Below, in pieces: positions 50,279-57,847 of a stretch of DNA of 64,000 bases. Positions within the stretch are counted from its first letter, which is position 1. The number at the start of each line of letters is the position of its first letter. Position numbers and translations under genes: made by a program. Source of the DNA: a virus (lineage: Duplodnaviria > Caudoviricetes); the IMG/VR virus record IMGVR_UViG_3300042997_001039, positions 1 through 64,000 of that record; one strand, written 5' to 3'. The notes beneath the pieces are model-generated. The model was not told where the DNA came from. It saw only the letters and a list, made by a program, of their open reading frames with translations, and searched no databases.

Positions 50279-51421
50279 ATGAAAGATAAAAAATATTTTT
50301 GTTACGAAATTTACAAAAATCTTGCCATAGCGTCTGATCCATCCGGAAAGGTGGGATACAGTCCTTGCTCTTACTATCGAGGTTTTATTAAAGTTTCAGA
50401 CGATATTGATATTTCTAAAATTTGGAACAGCCAGGAACATGTAGCGTTAAAACAATCAGTAGAAAATGATCAGCCAATACCTGGTTGTGCCAGCTGTTAT
50501 CAAGAAGAAGCTGCTGGCTTAAAAAGCAGAAGGATGGGCTCAAAAGAATTTTATGAGATTTTTCAAAACAATACCGATATCGACATTTCAGGTCCTCAGG
50601 GATTGGATTATAGGGTGGGTAATTTGTGTAATCTTAAATGTGTTATATGTGGCCCTAGTAATAGCACGTCGTGGATTCCGGACTACTCACGCATATACCC
50701 AGACCGATCAGTAGAGATTTTTAAGCATCGAAAAAACGAACAGATTTTTTTATCCGATCCCAAAGTAGTTGAAAATATTAATATTGTGCATTTACACGGT
50801 GGTGGTGAACCGCTAATGAGCAATGCCCATATAAAGTTACTAGAACTAATACGCGATACAAAAGGATTATCGGATGTACGTATCTTATACAATACCAATG
50901 GCACGATCAGGGCTAGTGATCAGGTACTTGAATTATGGAGTCAATGCCGGTTAATAGAATTGTATTTTAGTATAGACGATGTTGGATCAAGATTTGAATA
51001 CCAACGCACTGGTGCTAAATGGACAGAGATAGAAGATAATATTTCTTGGTACAAACAGAAAATGCCGCACAATCATATGTTTAACATCAATTGCACATGG
51101 GGATATTTGAATTTTTATTATCTGCCGGACTTAGTAGATTGGTATAATAAAAACTTTTCTACTAATAGATATGGGGATCCAGTTAACCTTATCTTTCAAA
51201 AGGCCCTGGGGCAATTTTGTTTATCTTACATATCATCAACTATGTTACAAATGTTTAAAAAAAGATTTGCCAATTATCCGACCCTACTGCCTTTGCTATA
51301 TTCATTGAGTATAGATAACAGTAAGGATCATTCTGAATTTTGGAATTCCATACAAAATATCGATAAGATAAGAAAACAAGATTTTAAAAATCTTCACTCT
51401 GAATGGAGTCAATTACTATGA
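50279..51421 (+). CDS. Radical SAM protein with an N-terminal Cys-rich (Twitch-like) domain
   Basis: CNLKCVIC (CxxxCxxC), GGGEP, YNTNGT, SID and N-terminal PC...C.SC. Confidence 0.92.
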   Translation: MKDKKYFCYEIYKNLAIASDPSGKVGYSPCSYYRGFIKVSDDIDISKIWNSQEHVALKQSVENDQPIPGCASCYQEEAAGLKSRRMGSKEFYEIFQNNTDIDISGPQGLDYRVGNLCNLKCVICGPSNSTSWIPDYSRIYPDRSVEIFKHRKNEQIFLSDPKVVENINIVHLHGGGEPLMSNAHIKLLELIRDTKGLSDVRILYNTNGTIRASDQVLELWSQCRLIELYFSIDDVGSRFEYQRTGAKWTEIEDNISWYKQKMPHNHMFNINCTWGYLNFYYLPDLVDWYNKNFSTNRYGDPVNLIFQKALGQFCLSYISSTMLQMFKKRFANYPTLLPLLYSLSIDNSKDHSEFWNSIQNIDKIRKQDFKNLHSEWSQLL

Positions 51422-51942
51422 AGATATTATGTACAGGTAACCCTTCTCATAATACTATAGCTAGTGCTATACATCGGCTGTTTCCGTCTGCTGAATTTGC
51501 TAGTCGTGCTACCGGTTACGATCTTAGATTTTGGGATAAAGGAAGCGAAGATCATTTCCGTATGTGTATTAAAAACTATGATGTTTTCATCAACAGCTCT
51601 TATATTTGCAGTGGGGGTCAGTTAGCATTATTAGAAGCTACACACACCGAATGGGCATTAGCGGGCATACATGGTCATATTATTAATATTGGAAGTTCAG
51701 CAGAATGGGAAGGTATTAATACCAAATTTGATAGCTACAGTATACAAAAAAGAGGACTACGAGATCGTAGCTTACAGTTAAATGGCAAAAAATGCATAAA
51801 AACCTCTCATATTATTGCAGGTGGTCTTAACGACAAGTTACCAGGACACGAAAACTGGTTATCATTAGATGATATTGCTGACACCATACTTTGGATATTA
51901 CAAAATAAAGTACAGATACCGTTGCTGCAAATACAGACTTAG
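51418..51942 (+). CDS. Short-chain dehydrogenase/Rossmann-fold protein
   Basis: ILCTGN, DVFINSS, IINIGS and YxxxK (YSIQK). Start at 51418. Confidence 0.8.
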   Translation: MKILCTGNPSHNTIASAIHRLFPSAEFASRATGYDLRFWDKGSEDHFRMCIKNYDVFINSSYICSGGQLALLEATHTEWALAGIHGHIINIGSSAEWEGINTKFDSYSIQKRGLRDRSLQLNGKKCIKTSHIIAGGLNDKLPGHENWLSLDDIADTILWILQNKVQIPLLQIQT

Positions 51943-51992
51943 TAGTAAAGTCTAAATAATTATTATAATAAATACTCAAAGAGATTATTTTT

Positions 51993-52250
51993 ATGCAAAA
52001 ACATACACGCAGTATCTTGGAAGAACTAGATACGATCTATCAAGATCGCTTTCAGGATCGAGACCGCCGCTACATTGTAGAAAGTCGTGCCACTAATGTG
52101 ATTGCCAGCGCCATTAGATTAATCGAACAGATTGAATCTGCTTATCCTCCGGATCAAGCAGATAATTTAGTAAGAAAACTTTTGAATGCAATTCGTGACA
52201 AAGATCCTAAAAAATTTACAAGAACCGTGAGAAGAACTGATGCAGATTAA
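51993..52250 (+). CDS. Conserved hypothetical protein
   Basis: 85 aa, late promoter at 51969-51974, coupled to the next gene. Confidence 0.7.
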   Translation: MQKHTRSILEELDTIYQDRFQDRDRRYIVESRATNVIASAIRLIEQIESAYPPDQADNLVRKLLNAIRDKDPKKFTRTVRRTDAD

Positions 52251-54141
52251 CGAAGGCGGTAATGTATTCAAAGATACAGCCGGTAATCCACTCACCCAGC
52301 GTATTGCTCAAGCTGATGTCATGCCCACTGCTCAATGGCTAGAGAAGATTACTGGCCTTGACCTCACTAAAGACAAAGACAAGCGTGATGGCAAGCCAAT
52401 TCGATGGCTAGGATCGACTGGCCGCAAGGCTGATTCAGGCGATCTAGACATGAGTGTTGATGCTGGCGAAATGACAAAAGATCAGTTGGTCGCAGTGTTA
52501 GCACAATGGGCCAAGAGTAAAGGTGTGGATCCTGCCAAATACATCAAAAAATCAGGCTCTGCTGTGCACTTTTTTACTGCCATCAATGGCGACCCTAAGA
52601 ATGGATTTGTACAAACAGACTTTATGTTTAGTAATAAACCAAGATGGACACAATTTGTATTAAGCAGCGATCCTCGTAGCAAATATAAAGGTGCACTGCG
52701 CAACATCATGATGAACAGTATGGCCAAGGCCTTGGGATACAAGTTGAATCAAAACGACGGTATTATGGATCGTGCTACCAATGAGTTGATCACAGACGAT
52801 CCTGCTCAGGTAGCTCAAATGCTACTAAATCCCAATGCCACAGTGGCTGATCTTTACAGCGTAGAAGCCATCCTAAAATCATTGGAAGCAGACCCAAAAC
52901 GTGCTACCAAGATTGCCGACTTTAAAGCACACATGGATCGCGAAGGCATACAGTTCGACGAAGGCATCTACGAAACAACAGAACTCTACACTGAATATAA
53001 CGAAGTCAGCATCATGGCCCGTTTACGTGATCGCATTGTAAATCAAGGTATGCAGGTCATTGTGGAAGGTGTGCGTATTGAGCACCCCGAGGACATGATA
53101 TTTGATCAGCGTCCCAGTGCTGGTCTCAAGCAAGCACTAGATGGCATCGTAGCTGCTGCTCGGAATCCTAGTGAGACCACAGTTAAATGGGACGGAAAAC
53201 CAGCCATTATATTTGGCCGTAAACCCAACGGGGAATTTGTGCTGACTGATAAGTCGGGATTTGGTGCCAAAGGCTATGATGGATTGGCTACCAACCCAGA
53301 ACAGATTGCTAAAATTATGAATATGCGTGGTGGCGAGCGTGGCGAACTTATTGCTCTTTATCAACGATTGTTTCCTATGCTGCGTCGTGCAGTACCCGAA
53401 GACTTTCGCGGCTATGTTCAAGGCGACTTGTTGTACAGTGAAGCACCTGCGTTGAAGGGTGATAATTATGTATTCACACCCAATACTGTAACATATACAG
53501 TGCCGGCCAACACAGACCTGGGCCAAAAAATTTCACAAAGCACTGCAGCAGTGGCTATTCATACTGCATTGTCGGCTCCGGGTGCAGCACCTACACCTAT
53601 ACGTGCTGCTGCTTTAGAACCCAGTCCGGGACTGTTGATTTTGGATCCCAGTTTGAAAGAACCACGTGAGATCAAGTTAAACGCTGCCACTGTTAAAGAT
53701 GCTACCAGTCTGCTCACACAGTACGGTGCAGCAATGGATCGTTTGTTTAATCCCGCTGAACTGCGAGCACGTAAGATCAGCGATTTTCCTATCTTGATTA
53801 AAACCTACATCAACAGCCGTGTTCGCGGTGGCAGCTATGACAACTTGATCGGCGGATTTGGCGATTGGGTCAAACAAAAAGCACCAGCAAAAGCACCACG
53901 CATATTTGAATGGGCTACTGAAAACAAGCAGGCAGTGGCAGCACTATTTCAAGCATTCTTAGAAATATCCAGCCTTAAGAATCAAGTGGTCCGTCAGTTA
54001 GATGCACAAGCACACGATGTACAGGCCAGCATCAACAACGAACCTGGACACGAAGGCTATGTGGGCAACGGTATGAAGTTTGTGGATCGCATGCGTTTTA
54101 GTGCTGCAAACTTTGCCAAAAATAATCCTGAATTAGGATAG
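52240..54141 (+). CDS. Fusion of a Pol-beta-type nucleotidyltransferase and an RNA-ligase-like domain (DUF6267-like)
   Basis: N-terminal LGSTG...SGDLD...QTDFM; C-terminal VKWDG, QGDLLY, HEGYV and MKFV.R. Confidence 0.75.
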   Translation: MQINEGGNVFKDTAGNPLTQRIAQADVMPTAQWLEKITGLDLTKDKDKRDGKPIRWLGSTGRKADSGDLDMSVDAGEMTKDQLVAVLAQWAKSKGVDPAKYIKKSGSAVHFFTAINGDPKNGFVQTDFMFSNKPRWTQFVLSSDPRSKYKGALRNIMMNSMAKALGYKLNQNDGIMDRATNELITDDPAQVAQMLLNPNATVADLYSVEAILKSLEADPKRATKIADFKAHMDREGIQFDEGIYETTELYTEYNEVSIMARLRDRIVNQGMQVIVEGVRIEHPEDMIFDQRPSAGLKQALDGIVAAARNPSETTVKWDGKPAIIFGRKPNGEFVLTDKSGFGAKGYDGLATNPEQIAKIMNMRGGERGELIALYQRLFPMLRRAVPEDFRGYVQGDLLYSEAPALKGDNYVFTPNTVTYTVPANTDLGQKISQSTAAVAIHTALSAPGAAPTPIRAAALEPSPGLLILDPSLKEPREIKLNAATVKDATSLLTQYGAAMDRLFNPAELRARKISDFPILIKTYINSRVRGGSYDNLIGGFGDWVKQKAPAKAPRIFEWATENKQAVAALFQAFLEISSLKNQVVRQLDAQAHDVQASINNEPGHEGYVGNGMKFVDRMRFSAANFAKNNPELG

Positions 54142-54761: not shown

Positions 54762-55424
54762 ATGCAACCACTCAACCCAATTCCATTATGGCCTATCCTG
54801 ATGTATGATTTTCAGTGGGACGACCACGATCAATATCGAGACGAGATTGCCCAGGTATGTTACGACCTCGAAGAGAAGAAACATGTCAGTAATGTAGCAC
54901 CAGATGCCAAACGCGGCCTGTACGAAAGCGGATTTGACTTTGTATCTACAGATTCGCCTGCTGTGCTGGCATTCAGTCACTGGGCCAAACAGTGTATGTT
55001 TCGTGCTGCCGCCAATGCCAACAAGGCCTATTGGCCCCCAGGTATGAATGTCACAGTAGAGATACACGAATCCTGGTGCCACATCACACGTGATGGTGGC
55101 TATCATGACATGCATGCTCATCCTGGTAGTTCTTGGTCTGCTATCTATTACGTAGACACCGGAGACATGGGTGCTGCTGAAGATAAAAATGGTGTCAACA
55201 GATTTTACAACCCCAATAATTGTGCCTATGCAGATGCAGGAATGGCCTGGACCAATCGCAACACCAGCATTGACTTCAGAGCTGAACCTGGTATGATGGT
55301 TGTTTTCCCCAGTTGGCTACAACATTCTGCTGTGGTTTATCGCGGCACCAAGGATCGTATTGTGATTGCGTTGAATTGCAGAATTACTCGGTCTGATATG
55401 TCACAGGTGTCGATATCAACATGA
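54762..55424 (+). CDS. 2OG-Fe(II) oxygenase (TIGR02466-like)
   Basis: W......GG.H.MH.H, WSAIYYV, FPSWLQH.A and R.VIA.N. Confidence 0.88.
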   Translation: MQPLNPIPLWPILMYDFQWDDHDQYRDEIAQVCYDLEEKKHVSNVAPDAKRGLYESGFDFVSTDSPAVLAFSHWAKQCMFRAAANANKAYWPPGMNVTVEIHESWCHITRDGGYHDMHAHPGSSWSAIYYVDTGDMGAAEDKNGVNRFYNPNNCAYADAGMAWTNRNTSIDFRAEPGMMVVFPSWLQHSAVVYRGTKDRIVIALNCRITRSDMSQVSIST

Positions 55425-56143: not shown

Positions 56144-56643
56144 AAAAACAAGAAAAGATTCTACAAAAGCTACAACAAATTGTTGAGCCAGAATATAACC
56201 AGCTTAAATCTAATATGATTATAGCTCAAAACAATCAATATCATGTGTTTGATCGATATACTATAGAAAAATCTGCTGACAACACTTATTCAGTTGCAAG
56301 ACAACGTTATGTAGACAAAATTTTCTCTACATTGCCAGTAGCCCTGAGTTGGTGTATTGCAGACAAGATTCGAAACAGTCGATTGGCTTATGCTTTACAA
56401 AATTTAGATCAAGAGCGTTTAAGAATTGCTGCAGATGTGTTTGTTAGAGAATCCTTGTTAAAACAAATAAAAGACCCTGAACGCAGAGAAATAACATATA
56501 TTAAAATTACAGCCAAAAAACAAGGTCTTAGAGCTGTAGAAAATCGTCTTGCCAAATGTGTTAGTTTGGCTAAATACTATCAGATACGAGGATTCAACCG
56601 CGATGAAACTGCACGAACTAGACACACTCAAACAACAAGATAA
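56140..56643 (+). CDS. Hypothetical protein
   Basis: 167 aa, basic and helical. Confidence 0.6.
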   Translation: MKKQEKILQKLQQIVEPEYNQLKSNMIIAQNNQYHVFDRYTIEKSADNTYSVARQRYVDKIFSTLPVALSWCIADKIRNSRLAYALQNLDQERLRIAADVFVRESLLKQIKDPERREITYIKITAKKQGLRAVENRLAKCVSLAKYYQIRGFNRDETARTRHTQTTR

Positions 56644-57847
56644 AGCAGCACAAGTATTGGAACAACGATTGGGTCAATCCGTTTCGTTTTCAAATCTTAG
56701 TCTGCGTGAATCACGTCACATGCTACTGCGTGTACGTGGCTTAATTAACGAACACAGAGCCAGTGCTGCGTCACATTCAAGCGAACGTGATCCTGCTTAT
56801 CTCAAGTTAATTATGCTGGAATCAGGACTTAAAGGTCGGCTGAAAGAAGGTGCACCTCCTACAGTATTACCTTCTGATCAGAAATACACACAAGCATTAA
56901 GCCGAGTATATGGTCAACAGATAGTAAATAATCCTAAGTTCTCTGACTTGCTTGCCAGATTAAAGCGAGCAACTCCAAATGAACGAGAATTAGATATTAT
57001 TATCAAAACTGGTACATTACCAAATCATCTTGAAGAAATTGCTACTACTATGCCTGGGCAAGCACCTGTTGCCGGAACGATGCCTGCTACTGGCACTGTT
57101 GCAGCAAAGCCAGGACAACCAGTTGCTGCACCTGTAAATCTTAAAGATCCAAAACTTGTTGCTGCTACTAAAAAAGCACAATCGGGTCAAACACTGAATC
57201 CTCAGGAAAAAGAAATGATGGCTGCTGCTGGTGCTGCTGCTGTGGCTATGCAGAAAGAATCGCAACAAGCCCGCCGTAGACTGCGAGAAAGCGAAATACA
57301 ACAGGCCCAGGTTGTGTTGGCTGCTCAAGATATGGTTGATCAAATCCAAAAAATGCTTGAGCAGATTTCTGCTATGCAGTTTAAAGATTTGCCAGCTCTG
57401 ACAGATTCAATCAAGAACGACATGGGTGTTGATCAAGCCACTGCTTATCAATCAGCTGCTGCTGCCGCACTAACACAATTGTTGGCAGGTGTACAACAAG
57501 GCAAGACAGCCTTAGAAGGTGCACAAGGTACACTAACAGGCCAAGCTCCGGTGGTACCTGGTACAGAACCTGCTGCCGACATGGGCGCAGATTTAAATGC
57601 AGAACCGGATGTAGATGTAGATGTTGACGCAGAAATTACACCTGCTGACGACGAAGAACCAACACCGTTGGGTGCTCCTGAAACATTAGGTCGCGAACGC
57701 CGTGTTGCTGAGGCCGCCAAGAAAGGCAAGCCAGATTTCCTGGATCTTGACAAAGACGGCAACAAAAAAGAAACAATGAAATCGGCTGCGGCTGACAAAA
57801 AAGCAGGACCGAAGAAAGGTGTTAATCCTTTTGCCAAATCAAAATAA
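56603..57847 (+). CDS. Probable prohead scaffold/core protein
   Basis: Starts MKLHE|L, coiled coils, LRE|SE junctions and a DLDKDGN motif. Late promoter at 56571-56576. Confidence 0.6.
   Translation: MKLHELDTLKQQDKAAQVLEQRLGQSVSFSNLSLRESRHMLLRVRGLINEHRASAASHSSERDPAYLKLIMLESGLKGRLKEGAPPTVLPSDQKYTQALSRVYGQQIVNNPKFSDLLARLKRATPNERELDIIIKTGTLPNHLEEIATTMPGQAPVAGTMPATGTVAAKPGQPVAAPVNLKDPKLVAATKKAQSGQTLNPQEKEMMAAAGAAAVAMQKESQQARRRLRESEIQQAQVVLAAQDMVDQIQKMLEQISAMQFKDLPALTDSIKNDMGVDQATAYQSAAAAALTQLLAGVQQGKTALEGAQGTLTGQAPVVPGTEPAADMGADLNAEPDVDVDVDAEITPADDEEPTPLGAPETLGRERRVAEAAKKGKPDFLDLDKDGNKKETMKSAAADKKAGPKKGVNPFAKSK

Follow-up and report, generated by a model that had tools for sequence, protein, structure and literature searches.

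Gene organization and relatives of the locus

We analyzed a 64,000-nucleotide (nt) stretch of viral DNA (Duplodnaviria; Caudoviricetes), positions 1 to 64,000 of IMG/VR record IMGVR_UViG_3300042997_001039 and hereafter called the window, with a focus on one gene whose 633-amino-acid (aa) product combines a domain that resembles a minimal family X DNA polymerase (PolX) with a domain whose predicted fold is of the ligase type. The window covers the initial 64 kb of a viral contig of 81 kb with a completeness estimate of 24%, which implies a jumbo myovirus with a genome of roughly 300–350 kb as its source; among the products encoded in the window are a tail sheath of 1129 aa, a large terminase, virion proteins, a DnaB-type helicase, and a primase. 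A megablast search with 24 kb of the window returned no close DNA-level relative among 50,697 phage records.

The main open reading frame (ORF) spans positions 52,240–54,141 on the plus strand and overlaps by 11 nt an upstream ORF of 85 aa on the same strand (51,993–52,250). It opens with a leader pentapeptide, MQINE (52,240–52,254), that ends in an L/I-x-E motif directly before a conserved GGNVFK, and continues with the PolX-like domain (52,255–52,959; aa 6 to ~240), an inter-domain linker (52,960–53,070; aa 241–277) that contains the tripeptides IYE (aa 243–245) and IVE (aa 274–276) and a conserved helix, ARLRDRIVNQGM, and finally the ligase-type domain, which together with the stop codon occupies positions 53,071–54,141 (aa 278–633). 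A preliminary description of this locus, made from its sequence alone, had proposed a virion-packaged double nucleotidyltransferase (NTase) in which a Pol-beta NTase is fused to an RNA-ligase-like domain. All the motifs that it listed lie in the 633-aa protein where it had placed them: LGSTGRKADSGDLD (aa 57–70) and QTDFM (aa 125) in the N-terminal domain (N-domain); VKWDG (aa 315), QGDLLY (aa 394), HEGYV (aa 604), and MKFVDR (aa 612) in the C-terminal domain (C-domain); and, as candidate cleavage motifs, INE/GG (aa 3), IYE/T (aa 243), and IVE/G (aa 274).

Relatives of the protein are numerous. A search at E ≤0.001 matched more than 4000 proteins, the best 120 of which are full-length, 66–94% identical, and located on contigs of up to 516 kb. 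Across 1.84 billion cluster representatives, 1515 clusters (50% identity) match the protein, 284 of them at E ≤1e-30, and within these the two domains appear fused in N–C or in C–N order, alone (N-domain ~250 aa, C-domain ~370 aa), or embedded in proteins of up to 1308 aa. The ligase half alone is found in ~280 cyanophage records.

The N-domain resembles a minimal family X DNA polymerase

To describe the N-domain we combined alignments with structural modeling. In an alignment with homologues that are 40–57% identical, residues G61, G67, D68, D70, and D127 are invariant and G58 nearly so; D68, D70, and D127 stay invariant when homologues from phages PA5oct, Atu_ph07, and Phosso are added. The domain therefore displays the Pol-beta-superfamily signature, with G58-S59 followed by the D68-L-D70 metal motif (within 52,408–52,449) and D127 as the third acidic residue (within 52,612–52,626). 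Sequence searches identified no Pfam, NCBIfam, or PDB match for this domain: the window protein gave none at E ≤0.1, and an hmmsearch of PDB with the alignment stayed at chance level and returned no PolX; phmmer with the whole protein against PDB likewise returned chance-level matches only.

The structural comparisons were far more specific. An AlphaFold (AF2) model of the N-domain built on the alignment reached a predicted local distance difference test score (pLDDT) of 89, and the top 50 Foldseek matches to it in PDB are all PolX (including Thermus thermophilus PolX), Pol lambda, or Pol beta, with E-values from 7e-5 over ~200 columns. In a VIA structural search of 48,161 chains, ranks 1–10 are all family X enzymes (Z 9.4–6.8; 158–173 aligned residues, spanning about residues 10–210 of the model), among them the Pol beta palm-thumb, Leishmania Pol beta, terminal deoxynucleotidyl transferase, Pol lambda, Pol mu, two bacterial PolX proteins, and Pol X of African swine fever virus (ASFV). 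ASFV Pol X, a chain of 174 aa, aligns over its full length to model residues 19–208 (Z 8.1, 159 residues, 16% identity). Terminal uridylyltransferases, poly(A) polymerases, cGAS/DncV-like nucleotidyltransferases (CD-NTases), oligoadenylate synthetases, and CCA-adding enzymes match the palm only (~85 residues, 23–139) at Z ≤6.6. Among viral structures in BFVD, the nearest neighbors are uncharacterized phage proteins, including Atu_ph07 gp065, and the named matches are giant-virus family X polymerases. The 8-kDa (deoxyribose phosphate (dRP)-lyase) and fingers (helix-hairpin-helix) domains are absent, as in ASFV Pol X: the domain is ~240 aa long and its alignments begin at the palm.

On these models, the N-domain is a minimal family-X DNA-polymerase-like module made of a predicted palm and thumb, a more specific assignment than a generic Pol-beta NTase. 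The preliminary description had placed it in the Pol-beta superfamily with CCA-adding enzymes, CD-NTases, and toxin NTases as its kin; the superfamily stands, and that kinship gives way to family X, which ranks at the top where the other classes reach lower Z-scores through palm-only matches. With a PolX-type palm and thumb, the expected activity moves from signal synthesis or CCA addition to the extension of polynucleotide 3′-ends. Furthermore, the N-domain is not RlaP: PF10127 (RlaP) matches neither the protein nor any of 17 N-domain homologues, even at E-values up to 10, and the second domain of RlaP is described as helical, where the present model has a PolX-type thumb.

The C-domain adopts a ligase-type fold

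The C-domain matches the Pfam family PF19782 (DUF6267) with an E-value of 1.1e-39; no other Pfam family, PF01068 and PF09414 included, and no NCBIfam family matches the protein. In the literature searched, we found no paper that names DUF6267 and no published function for it. In an alignment of 32 C-domain homologues (31–63% identical; residue numbers are those of the full protein, offset by +267 from the domain numbering), H282, D285, K316, D318, G319, D396, E605, G606, K613, and R617 are invariant. They include the residues of motif I (K316-W-D318-G319; 53,182–53,196), motif III (53,419–53,436), in which D396 is an Asp at the usual Glu position, motif IV (E605-G606; 54,049–54,063), and motif V (K613; 54,073–54,090). 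The catalytic Lys and Asp residues, whose loss in homologues was to count against the preliminary description, are thus invariant in distant homologues of both domains.

The AF2 model of the C-domain has a pLDDT of 94, and ranks 1–23 of its VIA search are all RNA or DNA ligases (Z 7.4–4.8; 139–198 aligned residues). RNA ligases head the list, with Naegleria Rnl5 (NgrRnl) at Z 7.4, trypanosome REL1 at 6.8, T4 Rnl1 and fungal Trl1 at 6.4 each, and T4 Rnl2 at 6.3, followed by archaeal, human, T4, Chlorella-virus, and ASFV DNA ligases at 6.0–4.8; with a difference of about 1 Z, the two classes are effectively tied. Foldseek gave no match at E ≤0.001 for this domain, and its weak list is headed by DNA ligases. 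We consider the assignment of the modeled domain to the ligase-type covalent nucleotidyltransferase fold, with motifs I, III, IV, and V, convincing because the top of the VIA list holds ligases only and because these motifs are invariant; its resemblance to RNA ligases is seen at the fold level only. Taken together, the searches on both domain models and the invariant motifs bear out, at the level of superfamilies, the preliminary pairing of a Pol-beta-type NTase with a Lys-AMP ligase-type domain.

The model also suggests an unusual topology. A helical insert of ~110 aa (about aa 482–590) precedes motif IV, which places motifs IV and V at the extreme C-terminus, and the chain stops ~20 aa past motif V, so that the model contains no oligonucleotide-binding (OB) domain, unlike ATP-dependent DNA ligases, in which an OB domain with motif VI comes after the nucleotidyltransferase domain. 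An OB domain is present in all known DNA ligases.

The role of DUF6267 was also examined through the ligase content of cultured phages. In the T4-like cyanophage S-RIM8, DUF6267 is the only ligase-like gene, and no PF01068, PF01653, or PF09414 ligase is present. In the S-RIM8 locus (NC_020486.1, 142,095–145,873), the DUF6267 protein (gp183, 298 aa, without leader) is encoded after the gp41 primase-helicase and MazG genes, and two ‘cytidyltransferase’ genes follow. As a general explanation, DUF6267 as a missing replicative ligase was rejected, since in Vibrio phage 2.275.O it is accompanied by both an ATP-dependent DNA ligase and an RNA ligase.

The two modules are linked across viral loci

We compared 80 related viral loci to assess how constantly the two modules occur together. 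N–C fusions account for 59 of these loci and adjacent N and C genes that overlap by 1–37 nt for another 15; one locus holds a C–N fusion, and five hold the C-domain only, two of them at contig ends. In Atu_ph07 (Agrobacterium) and Phosso (Sinorhizobium), the N-domain gene overlaps a different ligase-like gene with the motifs EKLDG and EGVV and a weak match to PF09414. The linker helix ARLRDRIVNQGM recurs at the C-terminal end of some stand-alone N-domain proteins and at the N-terminal end of some stand-alone C-domain proteins. Judged by these gene arrangements, the PolX-like and ligase-like halves are a functional pair of obligately paired modules, and the repeated coupling of a PolX-like enzyme to a ligase fold argues for consecutive steps on one substrate, in which a 3′-end would be extended and then sealed.

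The ligase-like proteins of Atu_ph07 (gp066; L006:4013–4987) and Phosso (protein 446; L005:3806–5041) form a second unannotated ligase-like family, matching one another with an E-value of 8e-29, and in both of these cultured jumbo phages the overlap is with the start of the PolX-like gene; BLASTP of the C-domain against both gave no match.

Other architectures extend the pair. Fusion partners of the pair or of the C-domain comprise a cytidylyltransferase-like HxGH domain (five representatives), NT5C/haloacid dehalogenase (HAD)-type domains, DUF5661, and, once, ParB_N with Acb1. The recurrent HxGH partner may point to nicotinamide adenine dinucleotide (NAD+) or another adenylylated cofactor. 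The single protein with Acb1, a metagenomic relative of 918 aa (P0235), joins DUF6267 to ParB_N, a cytidylyltransferase-like domain, and Acb1, a 2H phosphoesterase that acts against the cyclic-oligonucleotide-based antiphage signaling system (CBASS), and it looks like a polyvalent protein. If such large multidomain relatives are co-delivered polyproteins, fusion need not imply a common pathway.

Cleavage-type motifs and virion association

T4-type (gp21) prohead proteases cleave behind L/I-x-E, and proteins are directed into T4 heads by short propeptides at their N-termini (PMC9026906). The preliminary description had noticed sites of this kind in the present protein, and we find L/I-x-E before each of its two domains to be conserved far beyond chance. 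Among 132 full-length homologues, the motif is retained at aa 3–5 in 131, at aa 274–276 (IVE) in 124, and at aa 243–245 (IYE) in 88. When representatives at 50% identity were considered, [LIVMF]-x-E was found directly before 65 of 68 N-domain starts, including 20 that are internal to multidomain proteins with unrelated upstream sequence, and the three exceptional starts begin at or next to M-GG. For C-domain starts, the motif lies at most 14 residues upstream in 103 of 116 cases, compared with ~20% expected by a rough residue-frequency estimate. The motif stretches of the window protein, MQINE and the opening 10 residues of the modeled C-domain (aa 268–277, NQGMQVIVEG), have pLDDT values below 50, which in these models is more in keeping with a linear motif than with a folded element. 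Leaders such as MRAQEFLTE or MKIIELLTE, moreover, open many of the stand-alone DUF6267 proteins.

Virion data from a cultured relative are consistent with this pattern. Using hidden Markov models built from the conserved neighbors of the gene, we assigned orthologues in PA5oct, a phage whose CsCl-purified particles were analyzed in the original study. The N-domain corresponds to gp253, which has intact catalytic residues and is annotated ‘ESI-MS/MS’ (electrospray-ionization tandem mass spectrometry), and the same annotation is attached to gp251, gp250, and gp247, the orthologues of the 155-aa, 146-aa, and 432-aa products of the window; gp259, the orthologue of the 85-aa protein, is annotated as a ‘virion structural protein’ without a mass-spectrometry note. 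As a candidate ligase-like partner of gp253, PA5oct gp255 was discarded for lack of similarity. Both PA5oct and S-RIM8 encode an S77 prohead protease. No prohead protease gene was found on the 81-kb fragment, which at ~24% completeness is uninformative on this point, nor on three related partial contigs. For the protein studied here, packaging with processing is suggested by circumstantial support from motifs and orthologues, and we judge it a little likelier than its opposite.

A late-promoter-like box and the gene neighborhood

Two TAAATA boxes that resemble late promoters lie at 51,953–51,974 on the plus strand, 40 and 24 nt ahead of the ATG of the 85-aa gene. Most of 55 related loci, a set with many divergent members, have a box of the form NTAAATA followed by an AAAGG ribosome site about 20–27 nt before the start of this gene. 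Of the 84 ORFs in the window, 12 have TAAATA between −50 and −12, where ~1.2 would be expected; the tail-sheath gene is one of the 12, and the ORF starts preceded by the box include 603, 2995, 6476, 9563, 51,993, 54,218, and 55,880. The window contains the exact T4 octamer TATAAATA about as often as chance predicts (4 found versus 3.75 expected), and this octamer was therefore rejected as the promoter signal in favor of the shorter TAAATA core, which, on its conservation and enrichment, is likely the T4-type late promoter core of this phage group. The late promoter of the preliminary description is thereby supported.

That description had also assigned the 85-aa ORF to the NTase gene as its partner. 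The ORF is real and translationally coupled upstream of the gene, present in 57 compared loci and orthologous to PA5oct gp259 and Atu_ph07 gp068, and it is not a specific partner: its homologues stand directly after the primase and DnaB genes in PA5oct, Vibrio phage 2.275.O, Phosso, and Atu_ph07, with or without a PolX–ligase gene next to them. Since it travels with the primase-helicase module even in phages that lack the PolX–ligase gene, we rejected it as a dedicated partner. Its product matches phrog_11854 (‘virion structural protein’) with an E-value of 2.6e-13. A match to the C-terminal part of phrog_4873 (‘Ku-like DNA end binding’) is weak (E 0.0023), and a role as a Ku-like end binder was discarded on that account.

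The PolX–ligase gene follows the primase–DnaB block, with radical S-adenosylmethionine (SAM)/SPASM-like and 179-aa genes between DnaB and the 85-aa gene. In the window, these two genes occupy 50,279–51,942, the first encoding a radical-SAM/SPASM-like protein of 380 aa and the second, which overlaps it, a 179-aa product without a family match. This insertion is missing at the equivalent point in PA5oct, Vibrio phage 2.275.O, and Phosso, and the radical-SAM gene recurs there in 18 compared loci. Downstream, the genes for the 155-aa, 146-aa, and 432-aa proteins are kept in relatives. A 2-oxoglutarate-Fe(II) oxygenase gene (54,762–55,424; PF13759, 2.8e-18) is inserted into this block, whose PA5oct orthologues are virion-associated, and is found in only 6 related loci. 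The 432-aa product (56,549–57,847) is a low-complexity protein rich in Ala, Gln, and Glu; its gene is kept in 51 related loci, its PA5oct orthologue gp247 is a virion structural protein, and it may be an internal head or ejection protein.

A fill-and-seal repair enzyme as the favored explanation

We propose that the gene encodes a fill-and-seal polynucleotide repair enzyme that is expressed late, loaded into the capsid, cleaved, and injected, with the phage's own DNA as its likeliest substrate; we give this account slightly less than an even chance of being right. Briefly, transcription would start at the T4-type late TAAATA promoter, jointly with the 85-aa upstream gene, after which the protein would be loaded into the prohead and cut after E5 and E276, at the L/I-x-E before each domain, and the two freed enzymes would enter the cell alongside the genome. 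The minimal PolX half would extend a 3′-OH by one or a few nucleotides through its D68/D70/D127 metal site, and the OB-less DUF6267 half, adenylylated at K316, would then seal the resulting 3′-OH/5′-phosphate nick. Likely targets would be gaps, nicks, and damaged ends in phage DNA, at or after injection or before packaging. We infer the enzymatic activities, the substrate, and the packaging and cleavage of this protein from the features described above. A DNA substrate is somewhat more likely than RNA, in view of the family X fold with its thumb, the constant position of the gene after the primase-helicase, and the precedents set by the PgVPolX protein of Phaeocystis globosa virus 16T and by the ASFV enzymes. 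In its broadest form, in which a large and mostly uncultured group of aquatic and soil phages would load a polyprotein of mini-PolX and OB-less DUF6267 ligase into the capsid, the head protease would cut it, and the injected pair would repair gaps and nicks in incoming DNA before phage gene expression, the proposal is more speculative and rather doubtful.

Several observations weigh against this proposal. Pfam thresholds for PolX are missed, with only 1 of 17 family members matching each of PF14792 and PF14791, at E-values of 0.081 and 0.22. The fold match of DUF6267 to ligases is moderate (top Z 7.4), and sequence profiles link the family to no known ligase: an hmmsearch of PDB with the C-domain alignment returned chance-level matches only, and in hhalign comparisons the probability stayed below 2% throughout, whether the other side was formed by ATP-dependent DNA ligases (0.2% for two phage proteins), PF09414 RNA ligases (≤0.4% for three phage proteins), an NAD-dependent ligase, or the ligase-like proteins of Atu_ph07 and Phosso. 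The missing OB domain and the RNA ligases at the top of the fold matches favor RNA, or nicks with a 3′-ribonucleotide, as the substrate; a mixed case, in which such nicks in DNA are sealed as by bacterial LigD, is conceivable by analogy. With regard to packaging, the PA5oct virion proteome also held 7 ‘virion-unrelated enzymes’, so that the detection of gp253 is no proof of packaging; Atu_ph07 gp065 and gp066 carry no virion-protein annotation; the DUF6267 proteins of cyanophages and Vibrio phages have no leader; and the conserved h-x-E-GG might serve the structure or the catalysis of the domain instead of marking a site of cleavage. Finally, the fused form is absent from cultured phages of the collection, where none of 295 matching records covers at least 80% of the query.

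Some of these points are the natural starting ground for a reading in which the chemistry is the same and the substrate is RNA, the protein acting like a pair of RlaP and RNA ligase that restores 1–2 nt to tRNA or mRNA ends cleaved by anticodon nucleases or other RNases of the host and then reseals them; this was the main idea of the preliminary description. Such a pairing of a Pol-beta NTase with a neighboring RNA ligase is established for RlaP (PMC7824862), which adds 1–2 nucleoside monophosphates to RNA 3′-ends and does not accept DNA as a substrate (bioRxiv 10.64898/2025.12.29.696909). The best C-domain fold matches (NgrRnl/Rnl5, REL1, T4 Rnl1, Trl1, Rnl2), the lack of an OB domain, the pairing of the Atu_ph07 and Phosso N-domain genes with a gene that weakly matches PF09414 RNA_ligase, and the DUF6267 fusions to HAD phosphatases and, in one case, to an Acb1-type 2H phosphoesterase, both of which are classes that serve RNA end-healing, would all fit it. 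However, the lead of RNA over DNA ligases amounts to about 1 Z and was counted as a tie, the N-domain lacks a PF10127 match, and its C-terminal subdomain matches the PolX thumb instead of the helical RlaP domain. Moreover, the gene sits in a replication and virion block and not near tRNA, Pnkp, or RtcB genes, and Vibrio phage 2.275.O and Atu_ph07 carry ordinary RNA ligases elsewhere; we regard RNA repair as rather unlikely. A second messenger as product or target, whether the protein makes or destroys such nucleotides (CD-NTase-like, anti-CBASS) or nucleotidylates proteins or small molecules, is very improbable: CD-NTases do appear among the weaker palm-only matches (Z ~5) and one relative carries an Acb1 domain, but the thumb and the exclusive presence of family X polymerases at the top ranks argue for a polynucleotide primer end, the constant partner is an enzyme of ligase fold, and the single Acb1 fusion occurs in a multidomain protein and may only reflect co-delivery.

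The same enzyme could also remain unpackaged and uncut, filling and sealing gaps and nicks of replicated concatemers in the cytoplasm late in infection, before packaging, with h-x-E motifs that are structural. The gene adjoins the primase/helicase in every relative examined, a late box would suit a role before packaging equally well, and the leaderless cyanophage and Vibrio-phage versions, the non-structural enzymes in the PA5oct virion list, and the absence of PF01068, PF01653, and PF09414 ligases from S-RIM8, which has DUF6267, all agree with it. Against it, h-x-E is kept at internal N-domains that follow unrelated sequence, and the M-GG exceptions fit a need for a free N-terminus at GG; the motif stretches are modeled as disordered; ESI-MS/MS flags mark the PA5oct orthologues of the N-domain and of three genes downstream of it in the window; and DUF6267 stands beside a canonical DNA ligase in Vibrio phage 2.275.O, so that it is not simply a replicative ligase. 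On balance we find a purely cytoplasmic role possible and rather less than probable.

If packaged repair, as favored here, is true, bacteriophages would have in this protein their first DNA repair kit known to be delivered in the virion, and its N-domain would be the first family X polymerase from a phage. DUF6267 would then be a new ligase clade, and the pair the smallest known polymerase–ligase repair unit; provided that packaging holds, it would also found a new class of injected phage proteins, one whose task is repair and not attack. Injected repair would be directed at environmental damage or damage by host nucleases, and it would bear on the survival of phage genomes exposed to sunlight, oxidants, and host nucleases. 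Enzymes this compact might also be of use in biotechnology.

Comparison with known systems

The preliminary description presented the locus as a candidate undescribed anti-defence system. The general kind, a viral PolX with a ligase, is already known from PgVPolX and ASFV; it is the phage setting, the mini-PolX, the DUF6267 clade, and the capsid-targeting marks that are new. The closest parallel is PgVPolX, a PolX–ligase polypeptide biochemically shown to fill and seal a one-nucleotide gap (PMC5537341). Like the present protein, it is a single viral polypeptide with an N-terminal family X polymerase and a C-terminal polynucleotide ligase module. PgVPolX has a fuller Pol-beta-like core with dRP/apurinic-apyrimidinic (AP)-lyase activity and a ligase homologous to NAD+-dependent DNA ligases, whereas the phage protein has palm and thumb only, a DUF6267 ligase-type domain without a profile link, a bacterial host, and head-protease-type motifs before its domains.

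The ASFV set, comprising Pol X (174 aa; PDB 5hr9) and a DNA ligase, shares with it a minimal PolX without 8-kDa and fingers domains and the encoding of polymerase and ligase by one virus, but the two ASFV enzymes come from separate genes, the ligase has OB and DNA-binding domains, and sequence identity is 16%. ASFV Pol X and ligase have been reported in virions. In bacteria, LigD, the polymerase–ligase–phosphoesterase of non-homologous end joining, likewise unites a gap-filling and end-extending polymerase with an ATP-dependent ligase in one protein; its polymerase, however, has the archaeo-eukaryotic primase fold, an OB domain is part of its ligase, and Ku is its working partner.

RlaP with its RNA ligases is similar in that a Pol-beta NTase is genomically coupled to a 5′-phosphate ligase, the proposed logic being that a missing nucleotide is added before ligation; it differs in its helical C-terminal domain and in not acting on DNA, where the phage domain has a PolX-type thumb and no PF10127 match. 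With respect to delivery, the resemblance is to the internal proteins and Alt of T4, which have short leaders ending in L/I-x-E, are expressed late, and are delivered with the DNA (PMC9026906). The leaders MRAQEFLTE and MKIIELLTE of stand-alone DUF6267 proteins are built in the same way. The mature parts of the T4 proteins are not homologous to the present protein, for which processing is suggested by its motifs and packaging by the mass-spectrometric detection of PA5oct gp253.

In a 2022 review of phage DNA polymerases, the sole viral example of family X is ASFV Pol X (PMC8775771), and the portions of a 2021 jumbo-phage survey considered here describe RlaP and Rnl1/Rnl2 and not the PolX–DUF6267 pair (PMC7824862). 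Set beside these systems, what is new is the bacteriophage setting, a minimal PolX family for which no Pfam model exists, DUF6267 as a previously unrecognized ligase clade with a new topology, and the capsid-targeting marks that accompany both domains.

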